A stretch of 64,000 nucleotides of DNA, taken from the NCBI GenBank assembly GCA_964398915.1, contig CAYNOR010000006.1, positions 14,068 through 78,067 on the forward strand. The letters are read 5' to 3'. The position numbers and the translations under genes are program-made. The number at the start of each line of letters is the position of its first letter. Position 1 is the first letter of the stretch. This document shows, piece by piece, positions 2,521 to 47,079 of the stretch. The notes beneath the pieces are model-generated. The model was not told where the DNA came from and ran no database searches. It was given only the letters and a program-made list of their open reading frames with translations. Source of the DNA: an uncultured Verrucomicrobiota bacterium. Lineage in GTDB: Bacteria > Verrucomicrobiota > Kiritimatiellia > Kiritimatiellales > Tichowtungiaceae.

Positions 2521-5004
2521 TTAGCTTAAATCGATTCCGAATGTGATTTCATTTCCGAGACTCCCAGCATACTCAACAATCTTGGGTTTGTTTTTTGTAT
2601 GAACGTTTTCTTCTACAAGTTCATTAGGGAGTTCGTTTAGGAAGTAGCTTTCTATCAGTTGTTCCGTATTTTCATTTGTCTGATTTGTCGGTTCCTGTAT
2701 GGATTCCTGTATCTCAAGGATTCCTTGGCAGGTCGCTTGTTTATTTAGTTTTTTATGAGATTGTGTCGTTGAAGTAATACGGTTTCTTCGTGTGATGATA
2801 AGCTCATCCTTTGCGCGTGTGAGTGCAACGTAAAGAACTCTTCGTTCTTCTTCGATATCGTCCAGATTTCCGATGGAAAATGTCGATGGGTATTGCCCTG
2901 CTGAAACGTTCTGAATGTAACAAACTTCCCGTTCGGTTCCCTTTGCAGAGTGTATTGTGATTATCTGAACCACATCTTCATTTTGTTTTCGGCTAAGCTC
3001 TGAGCTGTACGCTGGGTCGAGTACGTATTCCTCAATGAACTCCAGTATGGATCTGTGTTTTTTTGCCAACTTAGCAACAAAGTCAAAATCACGGCGGCGT
3101 TTTTCCCAGTCTTGATTTTTATATTTTTCACTAAGAATATTATTCATCATCGCAGCCACTGTTTTTATGATCTCTGGGATCTGTCCATCAAGTTTCTGAA
3201 TGGTTTTTATAATTTCAATTAACAATGGAGGGATTTTCTGTTGCATTGCTAGGTGCCGCAGGGTTTCATCCAAATCAGAGTGTTGGAGAATCTCGTTCGC
3301 TATTTTTGCCGCCGTGACTTCGCCTAATCCGTTCCAGAGAATTAAATATCTCATCCATCCAATTTCATCTTGATGGTTTGCCGTAACGCGGAGTGCAGAT
3401 AAGACATCTTTTACATGCGCAGCTTCGAGCAATTTCGTTCCACCAATAAATATGTAAGGAATCTCTTTGGCAAGAAGGGCCGCCTCGACAGTTCTGGCAA
3501 TAAAAGAGGATCGGACAAGGATCATGTGTCTTGACCATGTGCTGCCATCCGCTTTTCTTTTTTCTAGGTCTTCAGCAATCCATCTTCCCTCCTCCCATTC
3601 ACATGAAAAAGTGTGAATTTTTGGGATGACACCATCTCCTCTTATTGCGCGCAGCCGCTTGCCATAAGGAACTTCACTTCTTGATAAAAGCCAGTTAGAG
3701 ATGTTGAGGATCTCTTGTGTTGACCGGTAGTTATCTTCAAGTTTTAAAACCAGCGCACCCGGAACGCGCTCCTTAAAGCTATGTACATTTCTAAAATCCG
3801 CGCCTCTAAATCCGTAAATAGATTGTGCGTCGTCGCCCACACAAAATAACTTTGCAAAGTTTGTCAGCGGCTGAAGGAGTTCCCATTGGATGGGATTGGT
3901 ATCCTGCATCTCATCAACCAATATGTGATCGTATTGTGAACCTATCCATGCGCAGACATCTGGATATTGGGCGATTCCCCGAGCGACAATGTCTAGGATG
4001 TCGTCGTAGTCAAAATAGTTTCGCGCCCGTTTCCGTTCCTCATAGTGTTTCATGACCGTCGCTATGTGTTCTTTTTGCGGATGGAAATTAGGAAATTTTT
4101 TTAAGAGAGCTTTATCAAGGGAACTCCGAGTGTTTCTGGCGTAAGAGTACAAATCACAAAGTTCAGCAGCTGTTAGAAATTGTGCCTTAGCTTTTTTGCC
4201 GCGGAGTATTCTGAATAATTGCAATTGGTCGTCACGATCGATGATCGTGAAGCTTTTAAAGCCAAAGGCGATCGGGTTACGATGAAGAAGAGATGTGCAC
4301 CATGTATGAAAGGTTGAAGCCCTCAATCCTTTACTGCTATCTCCAATAGTTAATCGAACCCGTTCAACAATTTCTGAAGCTGATCGACGAGTAAAGGTGA
4401 GTATTTGAATTCTTTCCGGACGAGTGCCGCTGGAGATCAAATACGCGGCTCGGGCGATGATCGTTTTTGTTTTCCCGCACCCGGCGCCTGCTAAGACAAG
4501 TGTATGTGTAGCGGGGGCGGTTGCGGCGTGTCGCTGGCTGTCATTCAACTCCCTTAACAGAGAGTCTACTGTATTCGCTTGCCCCGACCCGCTTTTCATG
4601 AATTCGCCGCAAGGGGTAAGATTCTTGGCTACAGTAAGTATTTGCTCGGAACAGATAGGTTGGGGGCGAGTTTGTCCGGGTGTTTCCGCTGGGATAAAGG
4701 GGAGAATCTCCGGAGTTTCTTGATGAATATCTTTTGTGGTTGCTATGCGTTCTGATTCTTTGGGCACATCAAAAGATGGTGGTGCCGGCATTTCTTTTGG
4801 TATCGGCTCTTTGCAGGTTGAACAACGCCATCGGGGTGCATCCGGGTTATAGTCGCTGGGATTATACTTTGCCCCGCAACCATTACATATGCACTCTATC
4901 GGCGTTTTAGTTTCCATATTCAGATTTCTGTTGTTTCGGGGGGCGTCTGAAAAGCGCCGTATCACTGACACAGTCTCACTTTTTACTCTTCCGCCAAGAC
5001 TCAT
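2521..5004 (-). CDS. UvrD/Rep/PcrA-family superfamily-1 helicase with N-terminal zinc ribbon and C-terminal extension
   Basis: Walker A LVLAGAGCGKTKT, then ILVDEMQDTN, GDDAQSIYGFRGA, EDNYRST, TIHSAKGTE and VLYVALTRAK. The N-terminus has CxxC...CxxC (CICNGCG...RCSTCK). An alternative ATG start lies at 4917. Confidence 0.85.
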   Translation of the reverse strand: MSLGGRVKSETVSVIRRFSDAPRNNRNLNMETKTPIECICNGCGAKYNPSDYNPDAPRWRCSTCKEPIPKEMPAPPSFDVPKESERIATTKDIHQETPEILPFIPAETPGQTRPQPICSEQILTVAKNLTPCGEFMKSGSGQANTVDSLLRELNDSQRHAATAPATHTLVLAGAGCGKTKTIIARAAYLISSGTRPERIQILTFTRRSASEIVERVRLTIGDSSKGLRASTFHTWCTSLLHRNPIAFGFKSFTIIDRDDQLQLFRILRGKKAKAQFLTAAELCDLYSYARNTRSSLDKALLKKFPNFHPQKEHIATVMKHYEERKRARNYFDYDDILDIVARGIAQYPDVCAWIGSQYDHILVDEMQDTNPIQWELLQPLTNFAKLFCVGDDAQSIYGFRGADFRNVHSFKERVPGALVLKLEDNYRSTQEILNISNWLLSRSEVPYGKRLRAIRGDGVIPKIHTFSCEWEEGRWIAEDLEKRKADGSTWSRHMILVRSSFIARTVEAALLAKEIPYIFIGGTKLLEAAHVKDVLSALRVTANHQDEIGWMRYLILWNGLGEVTAAKIANEILQHSDLDETLRHLAMQQKIPPLLIEIIKTIQKLDGQIPEIIKTVAAMMNNILSEKYKNQDWEKRRRDFDFVAKLAKKHRSILEFIEEYVLDPAYSSELSRKQNEDVVQIITIHSAKGTEREVCYIQNVSAGQYPSTFSIGNLDDIEEERRVLYVALTRAKDELIITRRNRITSTTQSHKKLNKQATCQGILEIQESIQEPTNQTNENTEQLIESYFLNELPNELVEENVHTKNKPKIVEYAGSLGNEITFGIDLS

Positions 5005-5015
5005 TCACCTTACGT

Positions 5016-6287
5016 CTATTCTTTTAGAAGCCTAACCCACGGAACAGTTTTTGAGGCTCCACTCACCGTAGTATAATTTTTTGAGCCAAGCAAAACGATG
5101 AACCCTTTTATCGCTTGCCCATCGACCATTTGGTCTGATGTTTCGTGGTCGACCATTAGAATAGAGCTTTCAGCAATTCGCATGCTTTTTGTCCCGAAAT
5201 TAAAATCACCTACAGCATGTATCAGAAGCACCTTTTTGTCGCATTGCAAAACCTCCCAAGATACGCGACCCACATCCAGTTCAAAAAATTCACCGATTTG
5301 GCTATCGATTGATTTCCCATCTACTATTACCGAAGATAGAAAGGCAAATGCGGTTCTGCCCTTAAAACAGTAGGAAGAGTTGAAGCCCTTTGCCCAGCTG
5401 TCAATTCTAACAATTCTGTCCGCTTGTGCGTTCTTTCGGGCCTCCTCAGCAGCCAGAGCTACCTCAGTCTGTCTCTTTATTACAGCCTGTTCCTTTTCTT
5501 TTTCTTCAAGCCGCAGCTGTTCCCACTGCGCTTCTTTCGCTTTCCGTTCGTCATCTTTAATTTTTTGATCTTTAATTCGCGCGGCCTCTTCGTCTTTTCG
5601 TTTAATTTCCCACGCTTTTTCCCGCGCATCCTCTTCGTCTTTTTTTCTAATTTCCCATGCTTTTGCTCGCGCCTTTTCTTCTTGTAGTAGTTTAATTTCC
5701 CATGCTCTCCCCATCGCTTTTTGGGGGTCAAATCCCTGTTCCTTCTTAACCAGCGGATTGAGGATTCCAGCGCGCTTTTTGAAGAAAGTCAGGTCTTCTT
5801 TGAAGTGGCGGGGGCCAATAGCCAGTTCGATGAACGCATCATCTCCGACCATGTATAGGCTAAGTAGTTTACCATCCCGATTATCTCCATTTGGAGGATT
5901 AGATGAACAATCTTTCGCGAAGCAATACTCTGTGCGGCCTTGAATCAGGTCGTTCAGCGCGCCTCCGCCGGACGGATCTCCAAATCGAAGGATTTTGATG
6001 TCAGGGGCAAACGCTAATGTCTGCGCAATGCTGGTAAATTTTTCGATAGCTTTGTCTGGGGGGCAGACCCATACCGCCCCGTATAAATCTGTGTCAGCTT
6101 CAAAATATTTCGAGTAGTTGGTGGAGGCAGATTCCCAGCCTGACGCGCCAGCGATTGCTTCCGGTTTGAGCCGATTTTTGTTTTGTTGGTCGTAGAGGAT
6201 GTCGTCTTCATAACTTTTGGTTACCTCTAGCAGCGTGCATCCGTTCAGTAAAAACACCCCGGCAATAATGATTAAAAACCGTCGCAT
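5016..6287 (-). CDS. lipoprotein with a central charged coiled-coil carrying AWEI repeats, function unknown
   Basis: Signal peptide plus lipobox MRRFLIIIAGVFLLNGC. The central region reads GRAWEIKLLQEEKARAKAWEIRKKDEEDAREKAWEIKRKDEE. It lies 11 nt upstream of the helicase ORF on the same strand. Confidence 0.6.
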   Translation of the reverse strand: MRRFLIIIAGVFLLNGCTLLEVTKSYEDDILYDQQNKNRLKPEAIAGASGWESASTNYSKYFEADTDLYGAVWVCPPDKAIEKFTSIAQTLAFAPDIKILRFGDPSGGGALNDLIQGRTEYCFAKDCSSNPPNGDNRDGKLLSLYMVGDDAFIELAIGPRHFKEDLTFFKKRAGILNPLVKKEQGFDPQKAMGRAWEIKLLQEEKARAKAWEIRKKDEEDAREKAWEIKRKDEEAARIKDQKIKDDERKAKEAQWEQLRLEEKEKEQAVIKRQTEVALAAEEARKNAQADRIVRIDSWAKGFNSSYCFKGRTAFAFLSSVIVDGKSIDSQIGEFFELDVGRVSWEVLQCDKKVLLIHAVGDFNFGTKSMRIAESSILMVDHETSDQMVDGQAIKGFIVLLGSKNYTTVSGASKTVPWVRLLKE

Positions 6288-35228: not shown

Positions 35229-36173
35229 TTAGCTACCTTTATTGTTTTGTTTTGTCTGGTTCTTCTCCCATGAGTCTTCTGGCTCAATACCAAGGTCAAA
35301 CCAGATGTCCTTTCTAATGTTCCTGTTCGAAATACAGTATTTGTCACAAAGACACCCTGTTCGGCGATTATACTCTTCAACTGCTCGCTTATTATTTAAC
35401 TCTAGGTACCCATCTTTCTGTTCGTCCCACGATATTAATATGATTTGCTCGGGAGAAACTGGCAACGTAACTTCCGTTTTCTTTTGCCCCAGACCAATAT
35501 GGCGATAGAAGGGAGGAAGTTTGTGGATTTCTGGGTTAACCCATACACAAGGCGAATCAGATGTAATGAAAGTAGAAGACGAATTTGTCCCAATTATTGA
35601 AAGATGCATTTGAGCCAATAGCTCTGTTTGAGAAATTATCATTGGAAACAGCGAATTTTGCATTGGTTTTTCTGCAAGGTTACGAACCTGCTCATGCGAA
35701 AGAGATTCTCCAGAGCCAGAAGAATGTTGTGTCGCTATAAATCGCTCTGCTCCTTCTTTTGTCATTTGTTCAGCTAATGAATCCATCATCTTTAGAGCTT
35801 CGCCCCATTGATTCTGCATATGATCGCGTTGCGCTACAGTGCGACTCTTCATAGCAGCAACGAATAATAACAATTGGAATTTTTCATCAGGCAAAAGATC
35901 CATTCTGTTTGTTAATTTTTCACGACGTAATCGAGCAAAAAAACCTTCAAGTCCTGAAAGGCCATGCTCTAAGGTCAAATCTCTTTCGCCTCCGCTCCCG
36001 TGAATGGTATACATCTCGCTCTCACAAAAAATGTTTTGCGGAGCTTTGTTTTTTGAAGCAGAACCATCCTTGGCAATCATCCATACATATGGCTCATGAT
36101 TTTTTGGCGCGTCAGGATCACACCAAGCCTTGAGATATGATTCAGGTATCCAGTGCTGTTTCTTGTGCCTCAT
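35229..36173 (-). CDS. DUF4238 domain protein
   Basis: The N-terminus KKQHWIPESYLKAWCD matches the H(Y/W)(V/I)P..YL..(F/W) start of DUF4238. The gene is AT-rich. Confidence 0.6.
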   Translation of the reverse strand: MRHKKQHWIPESYLKAWCDPDAPKNHEPYVWMIAKDGSASKNKAPQNIFCESEMYTIHGSGGERDLTLEHGLSGLEGFFARLRREKLTNRMDLLPDEKFQLLLFVAAMKSRTVAQRDHMQNQWGEALKMMDSLAEQMTKEGAERFIATQHSSGSGESLSHEQVRNLAEKPMQNSLFPMIISQTELLAQMHLSIIGTNSSSTFITSDSPCVWVNPEIHKLPPFYRHIGLGQKKTEVTLPVSPEQIILISWDEQKDGYLELNNKRAVEEYNRRTGCLCDKYCISNRNIRKDIWFDLGIEPEDSWEKNQTKQNNKGS

Positions 36174-36397: not shown

Positions 36398-36571
36398 TTT
36401 CCAATGTTTGGAAAAGTGCGGGGTAAAAGTTCCGAACATTGGAAAAACATGGTTGCTACCCGCTGGTAGGGACGGTTCGCCGAACTGTCCGCGGCGCGCT
36501 CGGCGAGCACGCCCTACCTTCTTCTTCCAAGCATTGGAAAAGTTGGGCAAAAAGTTCCAAACATTGGAAAA
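36398..36571. repeat. two copies of a composite module made of TTCCAA-N3-TTGGAA type palindromes around a GC-rich imperfect palindrome
   Basis: TTTCCAATGTTTGGAAAAGTgcGGggtAAAAGTTCCGAACATTGGAAAA (36398-36446) versus CTTCCAAGCATTGGAAAAGTtgGGcaAAAAGTTCCAAACATTGGAAAA (36524-36571). Between them lies GGTAGGGACGGTTCGCCGA...TCGGCGAGCACGCCCTACC. Confidence 0.7.
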
Positions 36572-36700
36572 TGAGTCTGTGCGCCGAGCGGCGTTTTCTT
36601 ATTAAAAACCCTATCCAAAAGCGGGATGGACGGCTATTTTCCGGATGTGGAAAAGTTAGACAGACTTTATAACCAAAAGTATCAACAGGAGACATCAGTC

Positions 36701-37552
36701 ATGAGTGCTGAAAAGACAACCAAGCTGACCGTGTTTGAAGGTAAGCATATCCGCAAGGTTCTTCACGGCGGCGAATGGTGGTTTTCGGTTATTGATGTTA
36801 TTGAGGTGCTGGTCGGTGGGGATCGTCCTCGCAAATACTGGAATGACTTGAAGAAGAAGCTGTTACAAGAGGGCTATATTGAACTGTCCGATAAAATCGG
36901 ACAGTTGAAAATGCCAGCACCGGACGGGAAACAACGTCTGACCGACTGCGCTAATACGGAGACGATGTTCCGTATCATCCAGTCCATTCCTTCGCCTAAA
37001 GTCGAGCCGCTCAAACGCTGGCTGGCCCGGGTCGGCAAAGAGCGCATCGACGAGATCGAAAACCCCGAACTGGCTATGGCCCGGATGCAGGAACTTTATG
37101 AAAAGAAGGGCTACCCCAAGGAGTGGATTGATAAGCGGCTGAGGGGCATTGCCGTCCGGCAGGATTTGACCGACGAATGGAAAAACCGGGGTGCCCGAAC
37201 CGCTTTGGAATACGCGCTTCTGACCAACGAGATCATGCAGGGGACTTTTGATCTGAAAGTTGAGGAATATAAGCAGATCAAAAATATCGACCGTGAAAAC
37301 CTGCGCGATCACATGACCGATATTGAGTTGATCCTGACTATGCTGGGTGAGGCGACCACCACGAAAATTCACCGGGATCTTGATTCTCAGGGCTTAATTC
37401 CGCTAACAAAAGATGCCCGGGATGGCGGGGCGGTGGCGGGCAGAACACGGAAGGATATTGAGGCTCAGACCGGCAATCCGGTCATCTCAGCCGGCAACTT
37501 CAAAAAACTGTCCGCAAAGAAGTCGAAAAAGTCGCCTGAGAATGAGGGGTAA
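36701..37552 (+). CDS. Bro-N domain protein (phage antirepressor / DinD-like family)
   Basis: FEGKHIRKVLHGGEWWFSVIDVIEVL (Bro-N), then KRWLARVGKERIDEIENPE...LTDEW...YALLTNEI. AGGAGA lies 7 nt before the ATG at 36701. Confidence 0.7.
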   Translation: MSAEKTTKLTVFEGKHIRKVLHGGEWWFSVIDVIEVLVGGDRPRKYWNDLKKKLLQEGYIELSDKIGQLKMPAPDGKQRLTDCANTETMFRIIQSIPSPKVEPLKRWLARVGKERIDEIENPELAMARMQELYEKKGYPKEWIDKRLRGIAVRQDLTDEWKNRGARTALEYALLTNEIMQGTFDLKVEEYKQIKNIDRENLRDHMTDIELILTMLGEATTTKIHRDLDSQGLIPLTKDARDGGAVAGRTRKDIEAQTGNPVISAGNFKKLSAKKSKKSPENEG

Positions 37553-37779
37553 TGAGAATGAAAGCTTGCTCCTGTTAAGGGTGGAGCGCACGAGCACACG
37601 GCCCGCATGAGAAACGCGCCCAGAGGTCGCGTTCCACCTGCCGTTTTCGTGGCTTTTCGTGTTTTTCGTGGCCATTCCCGGCTTGAGTCTGTTCCATTTT
37701 TCCAAGGGTTGGAAAAATCGGGTTTGGCATCCCCCTTCATTCGTGTACATTCGCGGCCTCTTTTAAAAAAGGAATTCCA

Positions 37780-40700
37780 ATGATTTATAGAATTGAAATC
37801 GGACTGAAACAGGGCGTGCCGGATGCTCGCGGACGCGGCGTGATCGGGCGGGCGAAAAGCGCGCTGGGTATGAAGATCAAGGGTTGCCAGACGCGCGACG
37901 TTTATAAGGTGGACGCCAACATTAAGCGCGCCGAGGCCAAGGCGGTTCAGCTCGGCTTTGCCGACGCCGTGGTCGCCCGTTCCGCTCTCGGTCGCCTGAA
38001 AGCTCCCGGCAGCTTCGATTGGATGCTCGAAATCGGCTTTAAGCCGGGCGTAACTGATAACGTCGGTCGTACCGCCCGCGGCGCGATGGCTGATATTCTC
38101 GGCCGCGAACTGGCGTGGGAGGAACAGGTGTACACCTTAATTCAGTATTTCCTCAAAGGCGACCTGACCCGCGAAGACGTTTTGCATCTCGGCAAAGACC
38201 TGCTGGCCAATACGCTGATTCAAACGATTCAGGTTTTCTCGAAGGAAGAGTGGCTGGCCGCTGAACCGGATATGACCGCGCCGATCTTCGACGACCATCA
38301 GGAAGTCAAAGTTAACGTGATCGAGCTGCCGGACAACGATGCCGCGCTGATGAAGATTTCCAGCGACGGGATTCTATCCCTTTCTCTCGAGGAAATGCGC
38401 GTGATCCGCAACCACTACCTGAGTGACGCTGTGAAAGCGCACCGCGCCGAACTCGGCATGCCCGTCTGGCCGACCGACGTCGAGCTGGAGTGTATCGCCC
38501 AGACCTGGTCGGAGCACTGCTCGCACAAGGTGTTTGCCGGAACGATCGAATACAAAGACGAAGAAACCGGCAAAGAGGAGATCATCAATTCCCTCTACAA
38601 AACCTACGTCAAAGCCTCCACCAAGAAGGTGGCTGAAAAAATCGACTGGCTGGTTTCGGTGTTCACCGACAACGCGGGCGTGATCAAATTTAACGAAGAC
38701 CTCCATCTGGTCTATAAAGTTGAAACCCATAACTCGCCGTCGGCGCTTGATCCGTTCGGCGGATCGATGACCGGCATTGTCGGCGTCAACCGCGACCCGA
38801 TGGGCACCGGCATGGGCGCGCAGCTGGTTTCCAACGTCTGGGGCTACTGCCTCGGCTCGCCGTTCTACGATAAGGAAATTCCTGCCGGGCTGATGCATCC
38901 GCGCCGTATTCGCGACGGCGTACATGCCGGCGTGATTGCGGGCGGCAACGAGTCAGGCATTCCGTGGAGCCGCGGCTTTGAATGTTTTGACGAGCGCTAC
39001 CTAGGCAAGCCGCTGGTTTACTGCGGCACGATGGGAACTCTGCCGGTTAACGTCGGCGGACGGCCTTCCGAACGCAAAGAGGTGCAGGTCGGCGACTGGA
39101 CCGTCATGTGCGGCGGCCGCATCGGCAAAGACGGCATTCACGGCGCGACGTTCTCGTCCGAAGAACTCCGCACCGAATCGCCCGCGCAGGCAGTGCAGAT
39201 CGGCGACCCGCTGACCCAGCGCAAGCTCTACGAATTTCTGATGGAAGCGCGCGATCTCGGCCTTTTCCGCTGTATCACCGATAACGGCGCGGGCGGCATT
39301 TCCTGCTCGTTCGGCGAAATGGGCAAATATTCCGGCGGCTGCGAATGCGAACTCAAAGACGCTCCGCTGAAATACGAAGGGCTCCAGCCGTGGGAAATTC
39401 TGGTTTCCGAAGCGCAGGAACGCATGACGCTGGCCGTTCAGCCCGAATGCCGCAGCGCTTTTGAAGCGTTAGCTAAAAAGCGCGATGTAGAGGTATCCTT
39501 TATGGGTACCTATAACGACAGCGGATATTTTACAGTGAAATATGAAGGCAAGGTCGTCGCCAGTCTCGATATGGATTTCCTCTACGAAACCGGCTGTCCG
39601 AAACTGCACATGAAAGGCGTCTGGAAGAAACCGGAAGTTCCGGCGCCGGAAAAAGCGAAGGGCGGAAACCGCACGAAATCTCTCCGTCAGATGATGGGCC
39701 GACTCAATATCTGCTCTCGCGAATACAAGAGCCGCATCTATGACGGCGAAGTCAAAGGCCTTTCGGTCGTCAAACCGTTTGTCGGCGTCAACGCCGACGT
39801 GCCGTCCGACGCGACCGTCATGCGTATCGAATACAACAAAGATCGCGGCGCGATTCTGGCCGAAGGGATTAATCCGTGGTTTTCCGATATCGACACCTAC
39901 CACATGACGGCGTCAGTTATCGACGAATCCATCCGCCGCGTTATCAGCGTCGGCGGACGGCTTGATCGTATCGCGATTCTCGACAACTTCTGCTGGCCCG
40001 ATCCGGTGCAGTCGCCCAAGACGCCGGACGGTGAATACAAGATGGCTCAGCTCGTCCGCTCCAACAAAGCGCTCTACGACTACACCATTGCGTTTGGCAC
40101 ACCGGCGGTTTCCGGTAAGGACTCCTGCAAGAACGACTCGACGCGCGGCGGAAAGAAAATCTCCATTCCGCCGACACTGCTCATTTCATCCATCGGCCAG
40201 ATCGACGACGTGAAGAAAGCGGTTACCATGCCGCTCAAAGAAACGGGCAGTCTGATCTACATGGTCGGTGTGACGAAAAACGAGCTCGGCGCTTCCGAAT
40301 GGAACCGCATGCTGGCCGAAGAGCAGGGCAATCCGTGGAACTACGGCGGTGACGTGCCGACCGTTGATGCCGCCTCCGCGCTGGCAATTTATCGCGCGAT
40401 GAACAAAGCGCAGGATGAAGGAATTCTGCTTTCGTCGCATACGCCGTCCAAAGGCGGACTGGCGATCGGTTTCGCGCTCATCTGCATGGGCGGCGGACTC
40501 GGTGCAGAAATCGATCTGGCAAAAGTTCCAACACCTGGCAAACGGAAACTCAAAGACGATTCGATTCTCTTCTCGGAATCCAACAGCCGCTTCATCGTTT
40601 CGGTTAAACCTGAAAATGCCGCGAAGTTTGAAGCGCTGTTTTCCGGCCTGCCGGTCGCGCAGATCGGAACCGTCACGGCGGATAAAAAGTTGGTGGTTAA

Positions 40701-40782
40701 AGGGGTCAAAGGCGCGACGCGCATCAACACAGCAATTTCTGATTTGGTGAAGCCTTTCAAAAAGACACTGTACGGAATATAG
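37780..40782 (+). CDS. purL: phosphoribosylformylglycinamidine synthase, PurS-like N-domain fused to PurL
   Basis: 1000 aa, with HNSPSALDPFGGSMTG, DNGAGGISCS and SGKDS. Confidence 0.9.
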   Translation: MIYRIEIGLKQGVPDARGRGVIGRAKSALGMKIKGCQTRDVYKVDANIKRAEAKAVQLGFADAVVARSALGRLKAPGSFDWMLEIGFKPGVTDNVGRTARGAMADILGRELAWEEQVYTLIQYFLKGDLTREDVLHLGKDLLANTLIQTIQVFSKEEWLAAEPDMTAPIFDDHQEVKVNVIELPDNDAALMKISSDGILSLSLEEMRVIRNHYLSDAVKAHRAELGMPVWPTDVELECIAQTWSEHCSHKVFAGTIEYKDEETGKEEIINSLYKTYVKASTKKVAEKIDWLVSVFTDNAGVIKFNEDLHLVYKVETHNSPSALDPFGGSMTGIVGVNRDPMGTGMGAQLVSNVWGYCLGSPFYDKEIPAGLMHPRRIRDGVHAGVIAGGNESGIPWSRGFECFDERYLGKPLVYCGTMGTLPVNVGGRPSERKEVQVGDWTVMCGGRIGKDGIHGATFSSEELRTESPAQAVQIGDPLTQRKLYEFLMEARDLGLFRCITDNGAGGISCSFGEMGKYSGGCECELKDAPLKYEGLQPWEILVSEAQERMTLAVQPECRSAFEALAKKRDVEVSFMGTYNDSGYFTVKYEGKVVASLDMDFLYETGCPKLHMKGVWKKPEVPAPEKAKGGNRTKSLRQMMGRLNICSREYKSRIYDGEVKGLSVVKPFVGVNADVPSDATVMRIEYNKDRGAILAEGINPWFSDIDTYHMTASVIDESIRRVISVGGRLDRIAILDNFCWPDPVQSPKTPDGEYKMAQLVRSNKALYDYTIAFGTPAVSGKDSCKNDSTRGGKKISIPPTLLISSIGQIDDVKKAVTMPLKETGSLIYMVGVTKNELGASEWNRMLAEEQGNPWNYGGDVPTVDAASALAIYRAMNKAQDEGILLSSHTPSKGGLAIGFALICMGGGLGAEIDLAKVPTPGKRKLKDDSILFSESNSRFIVSVKPENAAKFEALFSGLPVAQIGTVTADKKLVVKGVKGATRINTAISDLVKPFKKTLYGI

Positions 40783-40821
40783 GTCGAATAGGGCTTATTT
40801 GATCTATTGAAAGAAGTTCGC

Positions 40822-41382
40822 ATGCACGGCAAAGACGATTTAATTAAGGCGCACGGCGGCTACCGTGATCTGAAGTCGTTTCAGATGTCTGAAATCGTGT
40901 TTGATGGGACCGTGAAGTTTTGCGAGCGCTTCGTGGATCGTTTTTCCCGCACAACGGATCAGATGATTCAGGCCGCCCGATCCGGCAGGCAGAACATCGC
41001 CGAAGGATCGCAGGTCTCCGGAACCTCCAAGAAAACTGAACTGAAGCTGGTCAGTGTGGCTCGCGGCAGTTTGGAAGAACTTCTGCTCGACTACGAAGAT
41101 TTTCTGCGCCAGCGCGAGCTGAAGAAATGGGAGAAAGATTCCAAAGAAGCGTTGTTCGTGCGCAAACTTGGCAAGCAGGAGGATAGGTCTTATAGGACTT
41201 ATAAGACCTATCTCGAGACCCGCCCGGCCGAAGTTTGTGCGAACATCCTGATCTGCCTGATTTATCAGGCCAATTATCTGCTCGACCAGCAGCTCAAAGC
41301 GCTTGAGACGGATTTTCTCGAAGAAGGCGGCTTCACTGAACGCCTTTACAACTCCCGTCGCCGCAAGAGGGGAGATGGATGA
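40822..41382 (+). CDS. four-helix-bundle protein (23S-rRNA-IVS / Avd-like fold) with the four-helix-bundle suffix domain
   Basis: SRTTDQMIQAARSGRQNIAEGS and ARGSLEELLLDYEDFLRQR. Confidence 0.7.
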   Translation: MHGKDDLIKAHGGYRDLKSFQMSEIVFDGTVKFCERFVDRFSRTTDQMIQAARSGRQNIAEGSQVSGTSKKTELKLVSVARGSLEELLLDYEDFLRQRELKKWEKDSKEALFVRKLGKQEDRSYRTYKTYLETRPAEVCANILICLIYQANYLLDQQLKALETDFLEEGGFTERLYNSRRRKRGDG

Positions 41383-41606
41383 ATACTCAGGCACAAGCTG
41401 AAGATATTTGGCAGTACGGCACCTACGAAGGTGAGGAGAAGCTTCGTATGCAGCAGGAGCGAAAACTTTCGCTCGCACAAAAGCTGGATTTGCTGGATGA
41501 AATGATCGACTTCGCCACGAGCACCCACGGCACCCAAATGCTGGTTCGTGAGGATTCTCCCGGTTACGGTACCTTTGCCAAAAAAACAAAATCGGATGAT
41601 TCGTGA
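41379..41606 (+). CDS. hypothetical 75-aa protein
   Basis: ATGA overlap with the upstream gene. It contains SLAQKLDLLDEMIDFA. Confidence 0.4.
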   Translation: MNTQAQAEDIWQYGTYEGEEKLRMQQERKLSLAQKLDLLDEMIDFATSTHGTQMLVREDSPGYGTFAKKTKSDDS

Positions 41607-41842
41607 TGAATAAGGACGTACTCAAGATTCTAAAGCAGGCCTCGCCGGAAGATTTCGACGGACATACGGCGTTTGCGAGAATGACACCCGATCAGCGTCT
41701 AACATGGCTTGAAGAAGCCAATGCCGCCTATTTCGAGCTACACGGACGCGCCGTGCCGGAACTTCGCGTAAAATTGACACCGACCTCGACTCGCTCCGCA
41801 AACCGTTCAAGAAAACGCTCTATGGGATATAGATCTTTTTGA
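41603..41842 (+). CDS. hypothetical 79-aa protein; its 3' end reads through the purL remnant in another frame
   Basis: ATGA overlap with the upstream gene. TPDQRLTWLEEANAAY resembles the motif of the preceding ORF. Confidence 0.35.
   Translation: MMNKDVLKILKQASPEDFDGHTAFARMTPDQRLTWLEEANAAYFELHGRAVPELRVKLTPTSTRSANRSRKRSMGYRSF
41767..41832 (+). pseudogene. remnant of a diverged purL 3' end
   Basis: Translates RKIDTDLDSLRKPFKKTLYGI*, compared with TRINTAISDLVKPFKKTLYGI* at 40720-40782. The last 10 codons encode identical residues but 8 of them differ at synonymous sites. Confidence 0.75.
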
Positions 41843-41908
41843 AGGTTATCGGAGAAGTTATTTGTCTGCTATGAAACACGCCGAAAACACAGAACCAAAA
41901 ATTAATAC

Positions 41909-42169
41909 CTAAATCATATCGAGTGCCATTCGCCGTGTCTCTCTGGCATCGGAGTCGCCAGAAGTTGCAAGTTTATCTACGATGTATGCGAGAGCTTCGG
42001 TATAACCGTATTCGCCGAGCTTTTTCAGTGCGGCACGTCTGGTTTCGCGCGCATCAGAATCGCCGCTTGTCGCGTACTTCATAACAATTCGAAGAAGTTC
42101 TGCACATCTGGTGTCTGCTTCGATCCCGCCAAATTCGACTAACGTGATTCTGGGCATGAAACTCTCCAT
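41909..42169 (-). CDS. small HEAT-like repeat protein
   Basis: Internal duplication ATSGDSDARETRR(A/M)AL, present twice. Confidence 0.45.
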   Translation of the reverse strand: MESFMPRITLVEFGGIEADTRCAELLRIVMKYATSGDSDARETRRAALKKLGEYGYTEALAYIVDKLATSGDSDARETRRMALDMI

Positions 42170-42198
42170 TCTTGTTTCAAAACCGGTGCAGATTAGGA

Positions 42199-42822
42199 CT
42201 ATCTTCGCTTGGAATTCCGCATGACTTTTCTGCCTGCCAAGAGCACACCTGCACCTGAAGCCAAAAGTCCAATAGTCATGGGTTCGGGAATTGCCACTGG
42301 CACATTAATTTGGGCGATTTGGGTTGCTCCTGAGTTAGCAAAACCTTGAATTCCAACCTGCTCTTGACCAATTATTCGATCTGCATCAATCAAAGCACGG
42401 AAATAGTGGAGATCATTTCCTCTGATGGGCTCGTTTCCAGGTAGATTAGCCACCCAAGAATAGTTGCCATTATCTTCGCCGGAACTCCACTTTGTAAAAC
42501 TAGGAAGATCAAAATTATTGTCATAATTGTTATTACTGAAACCATACATTCCTCTTTGTGCTAAATCTGCACCAATAGTTACTTTCCATAAGGCATCTTC
42601 CGTATAATCACCTGCTGGAGGGTCTTGGTTTCTTATTCGCCATTCATACATCAGCTGAATTCCTTCCCGGGCCGTATCCATGTCTTGAGAGTCGTAAACC
42701 GTTGTTTGGATGTAATCAAGATTAAGAACTTTGTCCGCCCGCACCTTCATAGGCACCAAAGCGGCGAGCGCTAGCGCAACCAAAACATTTGAGAACATAA
42801 ACGCGCGAATTGTCTTGTTCAT
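42199..42822 (-). CDS. PEP-CTERM sorting-domain secreted protein
   Basis: Signal peptide MNKTIRAFMFSNVLVALALAALVPMKVRA. The C-terminus reads PEPMTIGLLASGAGVLLAGRKVMRNSKRR. Confidence 0.75.
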   Translation of the reverse strand: MNKTIRAFMFSNVLVALALAALVPMKVRADKVLNLDYIQTTVYDSQDMDTAREGIQLMYEWRIRNQDPPAGDYTEDALWKVTIGADLAQRGMYGFSNNNYDNNFDLPSFTKWSSGEDNGNYSWVANLPGNEPIRGNDLHYFRALIDADRIIGQEQVGIQGFANSGATQIAQINVPVAIPEPMTIGLLASGAGVLLAGRKVMRNSKRR

Positions 42823-43005
42823 AAACGCCCCTCTTTTCTGTTTGCGCAGACGGTAATCACATCTTTTCATCCGGTCAAGTTCAGATCGAGTCAGCACGCA
42901 TGTTCGTCAATAATCACTCTGGTATTTAAGAGTTTACATCCGTTATGTCGGCTGTTATAGCGACGTGGTCTATTGAGCCAAACCTTTGTTTGAAAGGGCT
43001 GCTTT

Positions 43006-44031
43006 ATGGCGACAGAACATTCGTACGACTATATCGTTACTCCTTATCCAGAGTATTGGGCGAAGAAGCTACATGTCGCCTATCCTATTTTATGGGGGCT
43101 TTTTTCCGGAGCTTTGTTTTGTCTGCAACTCGGAACGCTTTTACTTGCCGGTGAAAGAGAGCGTCTGATTTGCAGCTCAGTTTGGCCGTATGTCGCACTC
43201 AGCCTGCTTCCTGCAATCCTGGCGATCACCATAGTCCGGTTTTCAAAAATTCTGGAAGATTTCTCTCCATCTCTTATGTCCTTTGTGACTTGGCCAAAAG
43301 AGAAAGCACTCGACTGGTACTCCGGGCAGGTTCGTAAGATTTTCGATACGCGTCGCATGTGCATCGTCGGCCTTTGTTTCATTTGCAGCCTTCTTTATGT
43401 GACGCTTAACAGCCCCGTTCTGCCCTCCGCCACTGCGCCACGAATTGTTTTTCTGATCATCATGCTGGCGATTCAGTTTTTTGGCGGCGGAATGCTTTAT
43501 GTGATGTGGCACATAGCCCGGATGATCCGGGAGCTCGGACAAATTGATGCGATTAAGATTTCAGTGTACCAGCACCCCATGTCCAGTGTGAAAGCGGTGG
43601 GGGTGTTGATGGCTAAAGTGGCATTCACCATCGTGCTGATTTATCTATTTGGCATTTCGTACAGCATGTTCTGCACGCCGACCAAAGCTGTTTTGGCCAC
43701 GAACTTTATATTCGGCCTGATCGTCTTGTTCTTTTTTATTTTTCCGCAGATGGAGATTCACCGATTGATGGTCAAAGTAAAGCATCAGCGCTTGATACAG
43801 TTTTCCGGTCATTTGGAAAACGCCTTGCAACAGGTTGCAGAGAATCCATCAGGGGAAGCTGCCCAGCATGTCAAGGAGCTGTTTGATATCCAGAATTCTC
43901 TCAATGAAATGGGTGAGTGGCCGTTTAACACCAAAATGTTTATGACCATTTTTACTGGGATAGCCGTTCCCCTACTGGCGGTTCTTCTCCAGATCGCCTG
44001 TCAGTGGATAGAAAAGGTGGTTTCGCCTTAA
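43006..44031 (+). CDS. polytopic membrane protein, function unknown
   Basis: Six to seven hydrophobic segments. I recognised no motif. Confidence 0.5.
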   Translation: MATEHSYDYIVTPYPEYWAKKLHVAYPILWGLFSGALFCLQLGTLLLAGERERLICSSVWPYVALSLLPAILAITIVRFSKILEDFSPSLMSFVTWPKEKALDWYSGQVRKIFDTRRMCIVGLCFICSLLYVTLNSPVLPSATAPRIVFLIIMLAIQFFGGGMLYVMWHIARMIRELGQIDAIKISVYQHPMSSVKAVGVLMAKVAFTIVLIYLFGISYSMFCTPTKAVLATNFIFGLIVLFFFIFPQMEIHRLMVKVKHQRLIQFSGHLENALQQVAENPSGEAAQHVKELFDIQNSLNEMGEWPFNTKMFMTIFTGIAVPLLAVLLQIACQWIEKVVSP

Positions 44032-44052
44032 AATCGTGGCGGGGGATATCAC

Positions 44053-44670
44053 ATGGTACGTCGTTGCACACACATCTATCTGATTCGTCACGGCGAAAGC
44101 ATCCACAATGCGGACAGGAATAGATTTTCGGGAGTAACGGATATCCCCCTCTCCGAGAATGGAAAGAGGCAGTGTGCAGAAATGGCAACCTCACCTCTTT
44201 GGAGTGATATCGACAGCATATGGAGCAGTCCTCTCGAACGGGCTATCGACAGTGCCAAGCTTATTTTCCCGGACAGACAGGATTGCATAGAAACAGTTCC
44301 CAGCCTGATTGAATTTGATTACGGCAAATATGAAGGTAAATTGCCTGCCGAGTTGCCTTCGGACGACCCTGTAACTGTTCAGTGGGAATCGGATCCGACT
44401 CATCTCGCTTTTCCCGGCGGCGGTAACATCTCTGAACATGCTGACAGGGTGTGCGACGATTTGTTGAGATTGCTTGACCGTGCCGGCGACAGCAAGATAG
44501 CTGCCGTTTCCCACCGCACTACAATCCGGCTGTTGATCGCCAAAATCATGCATATTCCTCTACGATATTTCCGCGACATTCCTTGCGAGAATTGTAGCGT
44601 TACCGCGCTGACCTATTGCGACCGAAAATTGTCTCTCAAGAATCTGAATCTTAAACTGAGGTGTATATGA
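44053..44670 (+). CDS. histidine phosphatase (phosphoglycerate-mutase-like / CobC-like) family protein
   Basis: IYLIRHGESIHN catalytic RHG motif, and a later SHRTTIR. Confidence 0.75.
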   Translation: MVRRCTHIYLIRHGESIHNADRNRFSGVTDIPLSENGKRQCAEMATSPLWSDIDSIWSSPLERAIDSAKLIFPDRQDCIETVPSLIEFDYGKYEGKLPAELPSDDPVTVQWESDPTHLAFPGGGNISEHADRVCDDLLRLLDRAGDSKIAAVSHRTTIRLLIAKIMHIPLRYFRDIPCENCSVTALTYCDRKLSLKNLNLKLRCI

Positions 44671-45272
44671 GTCTGGCATCTGTTCTTAACTGGGCGGGTT
44701 ATATTTTTGCAGTCATAGGCCTTCTTGCGACGGTTTACAAATCTGTGACCGCTTGGCTAAGTTTAAAGACATTCAATTGGAAAGAATTCGACCGGATTGC
44801 CAAGCGGGTGATTGCAAAAATAGCTGCGGATAAATTTTATCCGGACGTAATCGTGACGATTGGGCGAGGCGGCGCGATTCTCGGAGCCGTTTTGTCGGGA
44901 AATCTTCCCGATGTGGGGCATCCGCTAAAAACGAAAAAGCGAAACATTCCGATTCTTGGAACGGACAGGCTTTACAAATGGGAAGATGGAAATCGTATCG
45001 AAATTCCGAATGAGATGGTGAGCTTTTTTCCACTTAGAGGGAAGAAAGTGTTAATTGTTGCCGCTGATGTTTTGTCTGGCGGCACAATGGAGTTTTTTGC
45101 AGAGCAAATCAGCGTGATTCAGCCCGCCGTGTTAAGGACGGCATGTCTGGTTAAAGGAATCACTTCAACTTTTGTTCCGAATTATTACGGCAAGGAAATT
45201 CCTGCCGATTTCAAGATGCCGTGGATGTACAAGGGATTTGGATACAGTCGGGATTCTCGGAAACCAAACTAA
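44661..45272 (+). CDS. membrane-anchored type I phosphoribosyltransferase-like protein with a divergent PRPP loop
   Basis: N-terminal TM segment, PDVIVTIGRGGAILG, and VLIVAADVLSGGTM in place of the canonical VLIVDDxxDTGxT. It overlaps the upstream gene by 10 nt. Confidence 0.55.
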   Translation: MYMSLASVLNWAGYIFAVIGLLATVYKSVTAWLSLKTFNWKEFDRIAKRVIAKIAADKFYPDVIVTIGRGGAILGAVLSGNLPDVGHPLKTKKRNIPILGTDRLYKWEDGNRIEIPNEMVSFFPLRGKKVLIVAADVLSGGTMEFFAEQISVIQPAVLRTACLVKGITSTFVPNYYGKEIPADFKMPWMYKGFGYSRDSRKPN

Positions 45273-45315
45273 CAATTTTTCTTAATAGTTGACGGAATTC
45301 CTGTAGTTTCCCCGA

Positions 45316-47079
45316 ATGCTAATAATTATCCAACACAGTGACGGCTGGCTTCGATTTGAGAAGCCGGTCGAAGTGCTGACGGCGCGCGCATCGGATGAAG
45401 TTTTCCAATGTCTGGAAAAAATTGAAGCCAGCGGTTTGTGGGCCGCCGGATTTATTTCCTACGAAGCCGCCGGCGCGTTTGATTCCGTATTGAAAACGCG
45501 CGCGACGGGTAATCTGCCGCTTCTGCAGTTCGGGCTTTTTAAAAATGTGGAAACCCACCCCGGCCTGCGGCCACCCCTCCATGGGAGGGGATTGTATCAA
45601 CTCGGCGAATGGACGCCGTCGGTGACGCGCGGAGAATATTCCGAAGCAATTGCGAAAATCAAAGAGCACATTGCGGCGGGCGACACGTATCAGGTGAATT
45701 ACACCTTCCGGCTGAATGCCGATTTTTCCGGTTCGCCGTTCGACTTTTTTTGCGATTTGGCCGTCGCCCAGCAGGGCAGTTATGCCGCCTTTATAGAAAC
45801 CAATGAGTTCGCTATCTGTTCGGCTTCGCCGGAACTTTTTTTCGAACTCAAAGACGGCGTGATTACATCGCGTCCGATGAAAGGCACCCTGCCGCGCGCG
45901 TTGACGGCGGAGGCGGATCGCGCCGCCGCTGAAGCACTGAAGAATTCGGCGAAAGATCGTGCGGAAAATATTATGATCGTCGATATGATCCGCAACGATA
46001 TCGGGCGCATTGCTGAGGCGGGAAGTGTCGAAACGCTCAGCCGGTTCGATGTCGAAAAATATCCGACTGTCTGGCAGTTGACTTCGACGGTGCGAGGAAA
46101 TGTAGACGCGACGCCCTCGTCGCGTTTCCCATCTGGAATAAAACGCGACGAGGGCGTCGCGTCTACGTTGAGACCTCTGTTTACGGCGTTATTTCCCTGC
46201 GCATCGATTACCGGCGCGCCGAAGGCGAAGACGATGGAGATTATCCAAGGTTTGGAGAAGTCGCCGCGCGGCGTTTATACCGGAGCGATTGGTTTTATTG
46301 CGCCGGACGGTTCAGCTCAGTTCAATGTTGCGATCCGGACAGCCGTGGTGGATCGGAGTGCTGGAGTGGTGGAGTACGGGATTGGCGGGGGGATTGTTTG
46401 GGACTCTGATCCGGATCAGGAATATCAGGAAGCCATGTCCAAAGCGGCGATCCTGACGAAAAAGATGCCGCAGTTTCAGTTGCTGGAAACGATGCTTTGG
46501 GAGGATGGAGAAATCTTTCTGCTGGAGCGCCACCTGAAACGGCTGGCGGAGTCGGCGGAGTATTTTGACGTCAAAATCGATCTGAATGAAATCCGCGACC
46601 ATCTGCGCCATCTGCGGTTTGAATATCCAACACGAATCCGGCTGTTGTTGAGCCGGGACGGGCAATTTAAGGTGGAAGCGGCATCCTGCTGCTGGACTCA
46701 GCGGCAGGATGCCGCTTCCACACTGGCGCTTGCGAAGCGTCCGGTCGATTCCGGGGATGTTTTCCTTTATCACAAGACGACGAACCGCTCGGTTTATGAA
46801 AAAGCGAAGGCGGACTTTCCGGAGGCCGACGACGTATTGCTGTTTAATGAGCGCGGCGAGGTGACGGAGAGCTGTATGGCCAACATCGTGGTCGAGCTGG
46901 ACGGGCGCAAGGTGACGCCGCCGGTCTCCTGCGGGCTGCTTGCGGGAACGTTCCGCGACGAACTGCTCGCAAAGGGCGAGATTGAGGAGCGGGCCATTAC
47001 ACTGGATGATTTAATGCGTGCCGACTCCGTCTGGTTGATCAATTCGGTGCGGCGATGGCAAGTCGCCAGCCTGCTCTAA
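45316..47079 (+). CDS. pabB: aminodeoxychorismate synthase component I fused to an aminotransferase class IV (ADC lyase-like) domain
   Basis: FPCASITGAPK, RGVYTGAIGF and GGGIVWDSDP, followed by a class IV-like C-terminal half (FLYHKTTNR). Confidence 0.85.
   Translation: MLIIIQHSDGWLRFEKPVEVLTARASDEVFQCLEKIEASGLWAAGFISYEAAGAFDSVLKTRATGNLPLLQFGLFKNVETHPGLRPPLHGRGLYQLGEWTPSVTRGEYSEAIAKIKEHIAAGDTYQVNYTFRLNADFSGSPFDFFCDLAVAQQGSYAAFIETNEFAICSASPELFFELKDGVITSRPMKGTLPRALTAEADRAAAEALKNSAKDRAENIMIVDMIRNDIGRIAEAGSVETLSRFDVEKYPTVWQLTSTVRGNVDATPSSRFPSGIKRDEGVASTLRPLFTALFPCASITGAPKAKTMEIIQGLEKSPRGVYTGAIGFIAPDGSAQFNVAIRTAVVDRSAGVVEYGIGGGIVWDSDPDQEYQEAMSKAAILTKKMPQFQLLETMLWEDGEIFLLERHLKRLAESAEYFDVKIDLNEIRDHLRHLRFEYPTRIRLLLSRDGQFKVEAASCCWTQRQDAASTLALAKRPVDSGDVFLYHKTTNRSVYEKAKADFPEADDVLLFNERGEVTESCMANIVVELDGRKVTPPVSCGLLAGTFRDELLAKGEIEERAITLDDLMRADSVWLINSVRRWQVASLL
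46102..46166. repeat. REPIN-like inverted REP doublet inserted in-frame in pabB
   Basis: GTAGACGCGACGCCCTCGTCGCGTT-spacer-AACGCGACGAGGGCGTCGCGTCTAC, translated as VDATPSSRFPSGIKRDEGVAST. Confidence 0.8.

Follow-up and report, generated by a model that had tools for sequence, protein, structure and literature searches.

In a stretch of 64,000 nucleotides (nt) from an uncultured Verrucomicrobiota bacterium of the order Kiritimatiellales (contig CAYNOR010000006.1, positions 14,068 to 78,067; hereafter, the window), the intact purL gene is followed, about 1 kb downstream on the same strand, by a second, orphaned version of the 3' end. Rather than being recent duplicates of each other, the two ends represent distinct allele lineages occurring separately, as functional gene ends, in related genomes. 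On balance, the locus is likely to be a recombination scar of the C-terminal displacement type, in which two long-separated purL-pabBC alleles were spliced in tandem by one illegitimate junction. The order in the window is: purL body, an end of the type here called A, an array of 9-nt repeats, a four-helix-bundle gene, the open reading frame (ORF) ORF2, and codons 1-56 of ORF3; then, beyond the junction, a purL end of the other type (B) from codon -21, a 3.5-kb segment, and pabBC.

The purL product matches the NCBIfam models TIGR01736 and NF002290 with E values of 1e-130 or better, yet under their curated cut-offs; for TIGR01736, residues 231-997 align with an E value of 3e-135 and 452 bits, the equivalog cut-off being 526. 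The purL genes of the relatives encode FGAR-AT_linker, AIRS, and AIRS_C domains, and purQ lies downstream, in agreement with a PurL/PurSL identity and a purine-operon context. Moreover, the protein shares 84.5-96.5% of its amino acids (aa) with those of the Pontiellaceae metagenome-assembled genomes (MAGs) L001-L009.

The working C-terminus reads ...RINTAISDLVKPFKKTLYGI (in a longer view, ...GATRINTAISDLVKPFKKTLYGI) and the downstream copy, lying in a frame that is otherwise closed, reads KIDTDLDSLRKPFKKTLYGI, each up to the stop codon. The last codons of purL are ACG CGC ATC AAC ACA GCA ATT TCT GAT TTG GTG AAG CCT TTC AAA AAG ACA CTG TAC GGA ATA TAG, and those at 41767-41832 are CGT AAA ATT GAC ACC GAC CTC GAC TCG CTC CGC AAA CCG TTC AAG AAA ACG CTC TAT GGG ATA TAG. 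According to the codon-by-codon comparison, the two copies share the final ten residues and the TAG stop, with eight of the ten codons showing a third-base difference and no other, in full agreement with the list in the initial annotation. The latter had the copy begin at 41767; its end and its reading hold, but the homology with purL begins at 41770 (AAA) or 41773 (ATT), the preceding bases being those of ORF3. This remnant has neither a start codon nor any purL sequence upstream of it.

Compared over their last 19 codons, the copies show 54% identity, with agreement at three third positions out of 19. The purL bodies of the A and B lineages are about 85% identical, and 66% at third positions; at this rate, three or fewer matches in 19 have a binomial probability of about 1e-5. 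The similarity also holds in a formal alignment: aligned locally at the protein level, the purL tail and the 2.5 kb downstream of it reached a score of 67. Deliberately mismatched pairs of tails and downstream regions from other loci (n = 420) averaged 24.7, with 41 as the 99th percentile and 58 as the highest score; chance is thus excluded, and the duplicated end is real. A regular-expression search of 80 purL loci found no further purL-tail remnant except that of the window.

A different kind of artefact would be an assembly chimera, i.e., A-type and B-type strain contigs misjoined during metagenome assembly. The window is indeed of the MAG type, and both allele classes are found in related freshwater and sediment MAGs. 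However, the junction does not fall at a shared repeat, and its flanks show no k-mer overlap with the alternative continuation. Furthermore, the chimeric ORF3 protein that results from the junction is identical on five contigs of differing length and source, three of them of 50-200 kb, and one independent contig (L180; 108,947 bp) is 100% identical over 40783-42000; the structure is thus not an assembly artefact. These contigs may stem from the same or related samples. Overall, a misassembly is very unlikely.

The provenance of the two ends emerges from the relatives. Species-representative genomes were scanned with the C-terminal half of purL, which gave 80 loci, the closest belonging to Pontiellaceae/Kiritimatiellales MAGs. 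The association between gene end and downstream gene described here covers the purL clade closest to the window (L001-L009, L087, L089, and L191). In the eight nearest genomes (L001-L006, L008, and L009), purL ends with ...RIDTDL(E/D)(T/S/A)L(R/I)KPFK(K/H)TL(Y/H)GI, which is the remnant type, and none of them harbors the four-helix-bundle gene. In L007/L191, L087, and L089, the gene ends with ...RIDTAISDLAKPFKKTL(Y/H)GI, which is the type of the working end, and the four-helix-bundle gene directly follows purL in all of them. The consensus sequences are ...TAISDL(V/A)KPFKKTLYGI for the A end and ...DTDL(E/D)(T/S)LRKPFKKTLYGI for the B end. Over the last 19 codons, nucleotide identity is 81-86% within A (the working end, L087, and L007/L191) and mostly 79-98% within B (the remnant, L001-L006, L008, and L009), with L009 as an outlier at 68-75%; A ends compared with B ends give 54-65%, and the working end compared with B-type ends 56-60%. 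Among more distant Pontiella-type purL ends, the four-helix-bundle gene is present in some and absent in others.

A protein search with the C-terminal 400 aa of PurL retrieved mostly fragments, and the only useful close match, the B-type fragment P0159, ends with the exact peptide of the remnant, IDTDLDSLRKPFKKTLYGI. The differences between the remnant and the other B ends are mostly synonymous. This, in turn, implies that the remnant evolved within a working purL until it was displaced. Hence, in Pontiellaceae (Kiritimatiellales), to which the analysis assigned the genome of the window, the stretch from the purL body to pabBC exists as two old alternative alleles. Allele A comprises the A end, the 9-nt array, the four-helix-bundle-suffix gene, usually ORF2-ORF3, and then pabBC; in allele B, the B end is butted against pabBC or separated from it by lineage-specific accessory genes. 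These data bear out the initial view that the two ends had evolved separately under purifying selection rather than by a recent local duplication, given that each is matched in other genomes and that they are not equally close to the same relatives: the A end is closest to L087 and L007/L191, and the B end to L001-L006, L008, L009, and P0159.

A local tandem duplication of the purL 3' end, followed by divergence and by the insertion of genes between the copies, could account for two in-frame copies with an identical stop codon about 1 kb apart. Nevertheless, it would have to saturate the third positions while conserving the protein, which a dead copy cannot achieve; moreover, for each copy, functional ends with 79-89% identity exist in other genomes, and the departures of the remnant from the B consensus are mostly synonymous. 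We regard this scenario as highly improbable.

The two junctions are of different nature. The window is co-linear with L087 (84% nt identity) without a break over 3,999 nt, from 37780 to 41769, that is, up to one base before the remnant. At this point, the A-type homology (L087, L185, and L181) stops at ...GAACTTCGCGT, and the homology with B-type purL starts with AAA ATT GAC ACC. On the other side, the informative sites within the purL of the window are in the B state up to 40719 and in the A state from 40733, which places an in-frame switch between these two positions. The locus thus combines one in-register homologous junction (40719-40733) with one between unrelated sequences (41769/41770). 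Beyond the latter, homology between the window and its relatives resumes at codon 5 of pabBC (45328). The breakpoints adjoin the borders (purL codon -21 and some 45 nt ahead of pabBC) at which A and B alleles cease to be alignable, which is what would be expected if strand exchange had stalled at heterology. The features of the locus are collected in Table 1.

Table 1. Features of the purL-pabBC locus in the window (positions are those of the window).
Feature	Position	Strand	Basis or remarks
purL, PurSL-type FGAM synthase, 1000 aa, intact	37780-40782	+	ORF list and NCBIfam TIGR01736/NF002290 PurL
Working purL 3' end, A-type allele	40720-40782	+	Codon comparison; 81-86% nt to L087/L007/L191 ends
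Degenerate 9-nt tandem array (ATAGGTCGA ATAGGGCTT ATTTGATCT ATTG), between purL and ORF1	40777-40807	+	Direct repeat
ORF1, four-helix-bundle protein with suffix domain, 186 aa from ATG 40822; upstream TTG 40807 possible	40822-41382	+	TIGR04258, TIGR02436
Internal 9-nt array and perfect 13-bp hairpin in the bundle-suffix linker, encoding DRSYRTYKTY	41182-41212	+	Inverted and direct repeat, motif scan
ORF2, 75 aa, no family; start overlaps ORF1 stop (ATGA)	41379-41606	+	ORF list, Pfam/NCBIfam
ORF3', chimeric truncated gene; alternative start 41606	41603-41842	+	Codons 1-56 (to 41769) belong to the 62-70 aa family; last 23 codons are remnant and spacer out of frame
Illegitimate junction, ORF3 codon 56 (A allele) to purL codon -21 (B allele)	41769-41770		Homology limits
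Displaced B-type purL 3' end remnant, 20 codons and stop	41770-41832	+	79-89% nt to purL ends of L001-L006 and L008
Accessory segment after the B end, 3.5 kb	41833-45315		Same purL-pabBC position as different inserts in L001, L003, and L189
HEAT-repeat ORF	41909-42169	-	Family scan
ORF with PEP-CTERM-like tail (by eye)	42199-42897	-	
341-aa ORF, no family match, hydrophobic by eye	43006-44031	+	
Histidine phosphatase	44053-44670	+	Family scan
Phosphoribosyltransferase-domain protein	44661-45272	+	Family scan
pabB/pabC fusion (pabBC), ancestral downstream neighbour of purL	45316-47079	+	PF00425 and PF01063

Three ORFs lie between the two purL ends, successively overlapping by ATGA-type junctions. 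ORF1 matches TIGR04258 (E value 3e-22; 78.1 bits, cut-off 40) and TIGR02436 (30.5 bits, cut-off 24), in both cases above the cut-off, and PF05635 (E value 9e-7; 29.6 bits) under the gathering score of 33.8. It has more than 8000 homologues, and those with 81-100% identity are from Kiritimatiellales/Verrucomicrobiota where a source is named; a sequence search of the PDB gave no match. Homologues of ORF2 are found in L087/L088 (79% nt, frameshifted) and in L005 (82% nt), where the gene lies directly upstream of pabBC without ORF1. Neither ORF2 nor ORF3 has a Pfam or NCBIfam match. Probing proteins with ORF3 from L087 retrieved 38 family members, all of 62-70 aa except the 78-aa protein of the window (P0146); those with a source name are from Kiritimatiellales/Pontiellaceae, most having none.

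In every context recovered (L181-L187), the ORF3 stop overlaps the start of pabBC; thus, ORF3 is the usual upstream partner of pabBC and not a part of the four-helix-bundle cassette. In L087, ORF3 continues ...ELRVAEESAEYKARRNC up to its stop (68 aa), whereas in the window it continues ...ELRV followed by KLTPTSTRSANRSRKRSMGYRSF and a stop, which is the remnant read out of frame. Consequently, the initial annotation was right to have the third ORF continue through the remnant out of frame. The ORF3 of the window is truncated at codon 56, and it is probably dead. As for the cassette, which had been described as a four-helix-bundle unit enclosed by the two ends, ORF1 with the 9-nt array in front of it does represent such a unit, but the three ORFs are not one cassette. 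A scenario in which all three were imported together, with the remnant being simply the vertical end, was accordingly revised. In L181-L184 (genes at about 3511-4207, locus coordinates), a gene for a 165-aa protein without a Pfam match usually lies ahead of ORF3 (67 aa, motif MTPDQRLTWLEEANAAY); in the window, L087, and L005, the place of the 165-aa gene is taken by ORF2. The 165-aa gene and ORF3 may form a small two-gene module.

The match of ORF1 to PF05635, a family that includes Avd, beside a repeated 3' gene end recalls a diversity-generating retroelement (DGR), with the four-helix-bundle protein as an Avd-like accessory factor and the two purL ends as variable and template repeats. The differences between the repeats, however, are not limited to the adenines of either copy (G/A, T/G, A/G, G/A, A/G, G/C, C/T, and A/G) and are synonymous, the opposite of diversification; no reverse transcriptase is found among the ORFs at 35.2-47.1 kb, and both repeat types are fixed alleles in other genomes. 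This explanation has next to no probability.

A site-specific (Campbell-type) integration is another alternative. In this scenario, a small mobile cassette with a circular intermediate would carry the purL 3' end as its attachment (att) site and integrate at codon -21, leaving att-like repeats. Direct repeats of the 3' end of the target gene do flank the insert, with the element-side copy completing purL; the switch on the left (40719-40733) falls where the duplicated segment begins, without a visible donor tract upstream; and the first codons of the remnant (AAA ATT GAC) resemble those of L007 (AGA ATT GAT), as in a reciprocal crossover. Four-helix-bundle-suffix genes are also wedged in unrelated operons across phyla with conserved 9-nt arrays at their borders, and a second insert flanked by direct repeats is present at the same hot spot in L003. 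On the other hand, no integrase, transposase, or other recombinase was found in or beside the 1,050-bp patch (Pfam and NCBIfam, ORFs at 35.2-47.1 kb). The longest exact run common to both repeats is about 6-7 nt, and their overall identity is 54%, which leaves no common core. On its right, the patch breaks off at an arbitrary codon (56) of ORF3, a gene that belongs with pabBC, rather than at a cassette boundary. Moreover, among 70 scorable four-helix-bundle-suffix loci, the upstream C-terminus is duplicated within 2.5 kb downstream in the window only and in none of the other 69, and the other Pontiellaceae with a four-helix-bundle gene after purL have no remnant. Tail duplication as a general hallmark of such cassettes was rejected on the same count, and an att-type integration at this locus appears unlikely.

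The most likely mechanism for the splicing of the two alleles is homology-facilitated illegitimate recombination. DNA from a related strain would have been taken up and integrated by homology on one side and illegitimately on the other, with the non-homologous joint at 41769/41770 and the other side kept in register by homologous purL or pabBC sequence. Because the joint lay close to where the alignment of the two alleles breaks down, the resident segment would have been pushed downstream instead of being replaced, the outcome being a working purL with an A end and an orphaned B end of 20 codons. No function attaches to the scar as such; it leaves purL intact, ORF3 truncated, and both accessory gene sets in the genome.

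Several observations weigh against this reconstruction. Microhomology at the joint amounts to four nt at most and varies with the relative used as a proxy: a CGCG is common to ORF3 (..TTCGCGT) and B-type purL (..ACGCGC), but using it needs an extra AAA, and an L009-like parent (..TCC AAA ATC) offers none at the joint. Nor is a clear tract of donor type visible as an anchor beside the junction: of seven diagnostic sites that distinguish L087 and L191 from the B genomes in the 300 nt preceding the switch, six are B-like in the window, the true parents lying outside the sampled genomes. On the other flank, pabBC is too mosaic for such a tract to be read. A simple anchored event would therefore need a donor whose purL body was already B-like. 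In addition, no natural competence or other route of transfer is known for the organism, and the signals on the direction of the transfer conflict, the purL tree pointing one way and the remnant identity together with the closeness of L185/L188 the other.

As regards this direction, we lean slightly towards an entry of the cassette and the A end, as an imported piece of about 1,050 bp, into a B-type genome. The purL body of the window is sister to that of the B-type L002 (97% bootstrap) and is nested among B-type genomes, and purL represents a much better homologous anchor (85-91% nt) than pabBC (73-78%, mosaic). The reverse, i.e., that the remnant and the 3.5-kb segment (41770-45315) entered an A-type genome that already had the cassette, is nearly as likely. 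The remnant is 79% identical to the end of L002, the poorest value among L001-L006 and L008 (L005, 89%), with only L009 lower (72%), despite the purL ends of L001-L003 being 93-98% alike. Third-position identity with the window is 77% for the four-helix-bundle gene of the cassette-bearing lineages L185/L188, as close as purL of L002 (77.5%), and the family has long had a four-helix-bundle gene after purL; both favor the import of the remnant. Taken together, the purL-body tree, the four-helix-bundle distances, the sliding identity along pabBC, and the haplotype-diagnostic sites gave conflicting or uninformative signals. The initial annotation had one of the ends arriving together with the cassette; the purL body speaks for it, but the poor match between the remnant and L002 and the data on L185/L188 favor the opposite, and this part of the claim, though likely, is not established.

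Whatever its direction, the event took place at a hot spot. The ancestral order is purL-pabBC-purQ-ilvC, as judged from synteny in L002-L006 and L081-L086, and the accessory genes held by the purL-pabBC spacer differ in nearly all relatives. In L002, L004, and L006, there is no room between the two genes, the stop of purL and the start of pabBC overlapping (TAATG/TGATG); the four-helix-bundle gene alone lies between the two genes in L081-L086, L013, and L191, and ORF2 alone in L005. The spacer of L001 harbors glycosyltransferase-like, radical-SAM-like, and kinase-like ORFs (judged from translations by eye), that of L003 an MNT (Polbeta)/HEPN toxin-antitoxin pair, that of L189 an AAA_14/DUF4143 gene, and that of L181 a GH16 gene and others; L008 also has its own insert. 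The 3.5-kb accessory segment of the window has a counterpart in no fetched relative. The insert of L003 offers a mirror-image scar: a direct duplication of 94 nt (93% identity; 4232-4325 and 5061-5153) of the 5' end of pabBC brackets the MNT/HEPN pair. Inserts bracketed by a duplicated gene end thus recur at the purL-pabBC site.

Other traits of the region were recorded alongside. The pabBC gene evolves much faster than its neighbours, being 73-78% identical (nt) between genomes in which purL is 87-91% identical; it is also strongly mosaic (window and 12 relatives), the closest relative switching every few hundred bases. The nearest relatives of the four-helix-bundle gene of the window are themselves rearranged: in L185-L187, the gene is truncated at its 5' end and lies directly downstream of a DDE transposase gene (an insertion sequence); in L188, a rhamnosidase gene is fused onto codon ~17 of the four-helix-bundle gene, and pabBC directly follows. 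Just upstream of purL, a DUF4238 gene (35229-36173, - strand) and a Bro-N domain gene (36626-37552, + strand) lie between repeat-rich spacers; both are missing from this position in the syntenic L001, suggesting a further insertion. The palindromic motif TTCCAANNNTTGGAA occurs in 17 copies in the window (at most one mismatch), 0.25 being expected; several copies are clustered in intergenic regions upstream of purL (36399-36569 and 37700-37714), and there are 12 other sites. It looks like a family of intergenic repeats of the repetitive extragenic palindromic (REP) type. In the segment 40500-42300, an Rfam scan (E value up to 1) retrieved nothing, and a promoter and terminator scan found nothing above shuffled sequences.

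The structure represents a recombination scar of a known type, located at a hot spot for accessory genes, and not a new system. Its closest published analogues, for which the same mechanism has been invoked, are the C-terminal displacements at rhs and type VI secretion system (T6SS) effector loci (PMC5361080). As in the rhs/CdiA/T6SS effector-immunity genes (Jackson et al. 2009; Kirchberger et al. 2017, PMC5361080), the incoming segment brings its own 3' end, the earlier one is pushed downstream and survives as an orphan, a homologous event on the conserved side and an illegitimate joint on the other are proposed, and the locus is targeted repeatedly. Unlike them, the gene is a housekeeping enzyme whose alternative ends encode equivalent and partly identical peptides instead of different toxins, there is no immunity-gene logic and no array of successive orphans, and the orphan spans only 20 codons.

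Homology-facilitated illegitimate recombination in naturally transformable bacteria (de Vries & Wackernagel 2002; Prudhomme et al. 2002; Meier & Wackernagel 2003; as cited in PMC5361080 and PMC3240628) likewise joins an in-register side with a non-homologous joint near a homology border, and about 1-3.5 kb of foreign DNA is captured. In the experimental events, recipient DNA is usually deleted, microhomologies of 3-10 nt are used, and the donor provides an anchor tract; at our locus, by contrast, the purL side shows no deletion, microhomology is at most 4 nt and uncertain, and the anchor tract is not recognisable. Islands and prophages at the 3' ends of tRNA and protein genes, in which attP restores the gene, share with the window the direct repeats of a gene end bracketing an insert and an insert-borne copy keeping the gene intact; the locus, by contrast, lacks an integrase and a shared core, its repeats have 54% identity, its insert ends at an arbitrary point within another gene, and the arrangement does not recur at 69 other loci of the cassette family. 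Finally, like other PF05635/TIGR02436 four-helix-bundle proteins (those of 23S rRNA intervening sequences and the DGR protein Avd), ORF1 is a small insert inside a conserved transcription unit; unlike them, it lies neither in an rRNA intervening sequence nor beside a reverse transcriptase.

The four-helix-bundle-suffix genes are of interest in their own right. The stop codon of purL falls inside the first unit of the array at 40777-40807, and the 9-nt unit reads approximately ATAGGACCT or ATAAGACCT, with GC-rich variants GACAGGTCT. Among 82 distinct loci from many phyla (the window and L081-L179), arrays of this kind occur 5' of the gene at 46 of 82 loci, 3' of it at 35 of 78 loci, and within the bundle-suffix linker at 76 of 82 loci, compared with 6% of random segments. 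A literature search for the array sequence and the family accessions returned no description. Genes 65-72% identical to that of the window are found across phyla, on the same strand as their neighbours, with overlapping stop and start codons, and wedged in unrelated operons. In the Bacteroidetes L092-L095, the gene is flanked by nadE and a TP_methylase gene; in Ca. Brocadia (L096-L098), the order is cas4-X-cas1-x-cas2, in which x, flanked by cas1 and cas2, is another small PF05635 gene; and among other loci (L167/L163 and L111/L144), the upstream tails look like secA and radC (C-terminal peptides judged by eye).

This distribution suggests that the four-helix-bundle-suffix gene is horizontally mobile. 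A bolder possibility, to which we give little credence, is that the gene and its 9-nt arrays constitute an undescribed recombinase-less mobile cassette, wedging between translationally coupled genes and spreading by co-transfer of the upstream tail; the operons concerned would be purL-pabBC, cas4-cas1-cas2, nadE-methylase, secA, and radC. If so, the duplication of the purL tail would be a trace of such a transfer that is seldom preserved, with the A-type purL end being DNA carried by the cassette.

Read as a scar between two alleles, the locus provides a clean natural case of a housekeeping gene gaining a replacement 3' end, a pattern hitherto discussed mainly for polymorphic toxin loci. It also indicates that the last codons of a gene beside a presence/absence polymorphism can persist as deeply diverged alleles: in purL, the synonymous sites of the end are saturated while the body of the gene is homogenised by recombination. 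In practice, the remnant and the chimeric ORF3 are annotation traps, and gene flow between Pontiellaceae strains can be followed with the purL-pabBC spacer as a marker. The finding on the arrays may outweigh the scar itself: together with the wedged position of the genes in operons, including the adaptation modules of clustered regularly interspaced short palindromic repeats (CRISPR) systems, it points to a very widespread and unstudied gene family with mobile behaviour.

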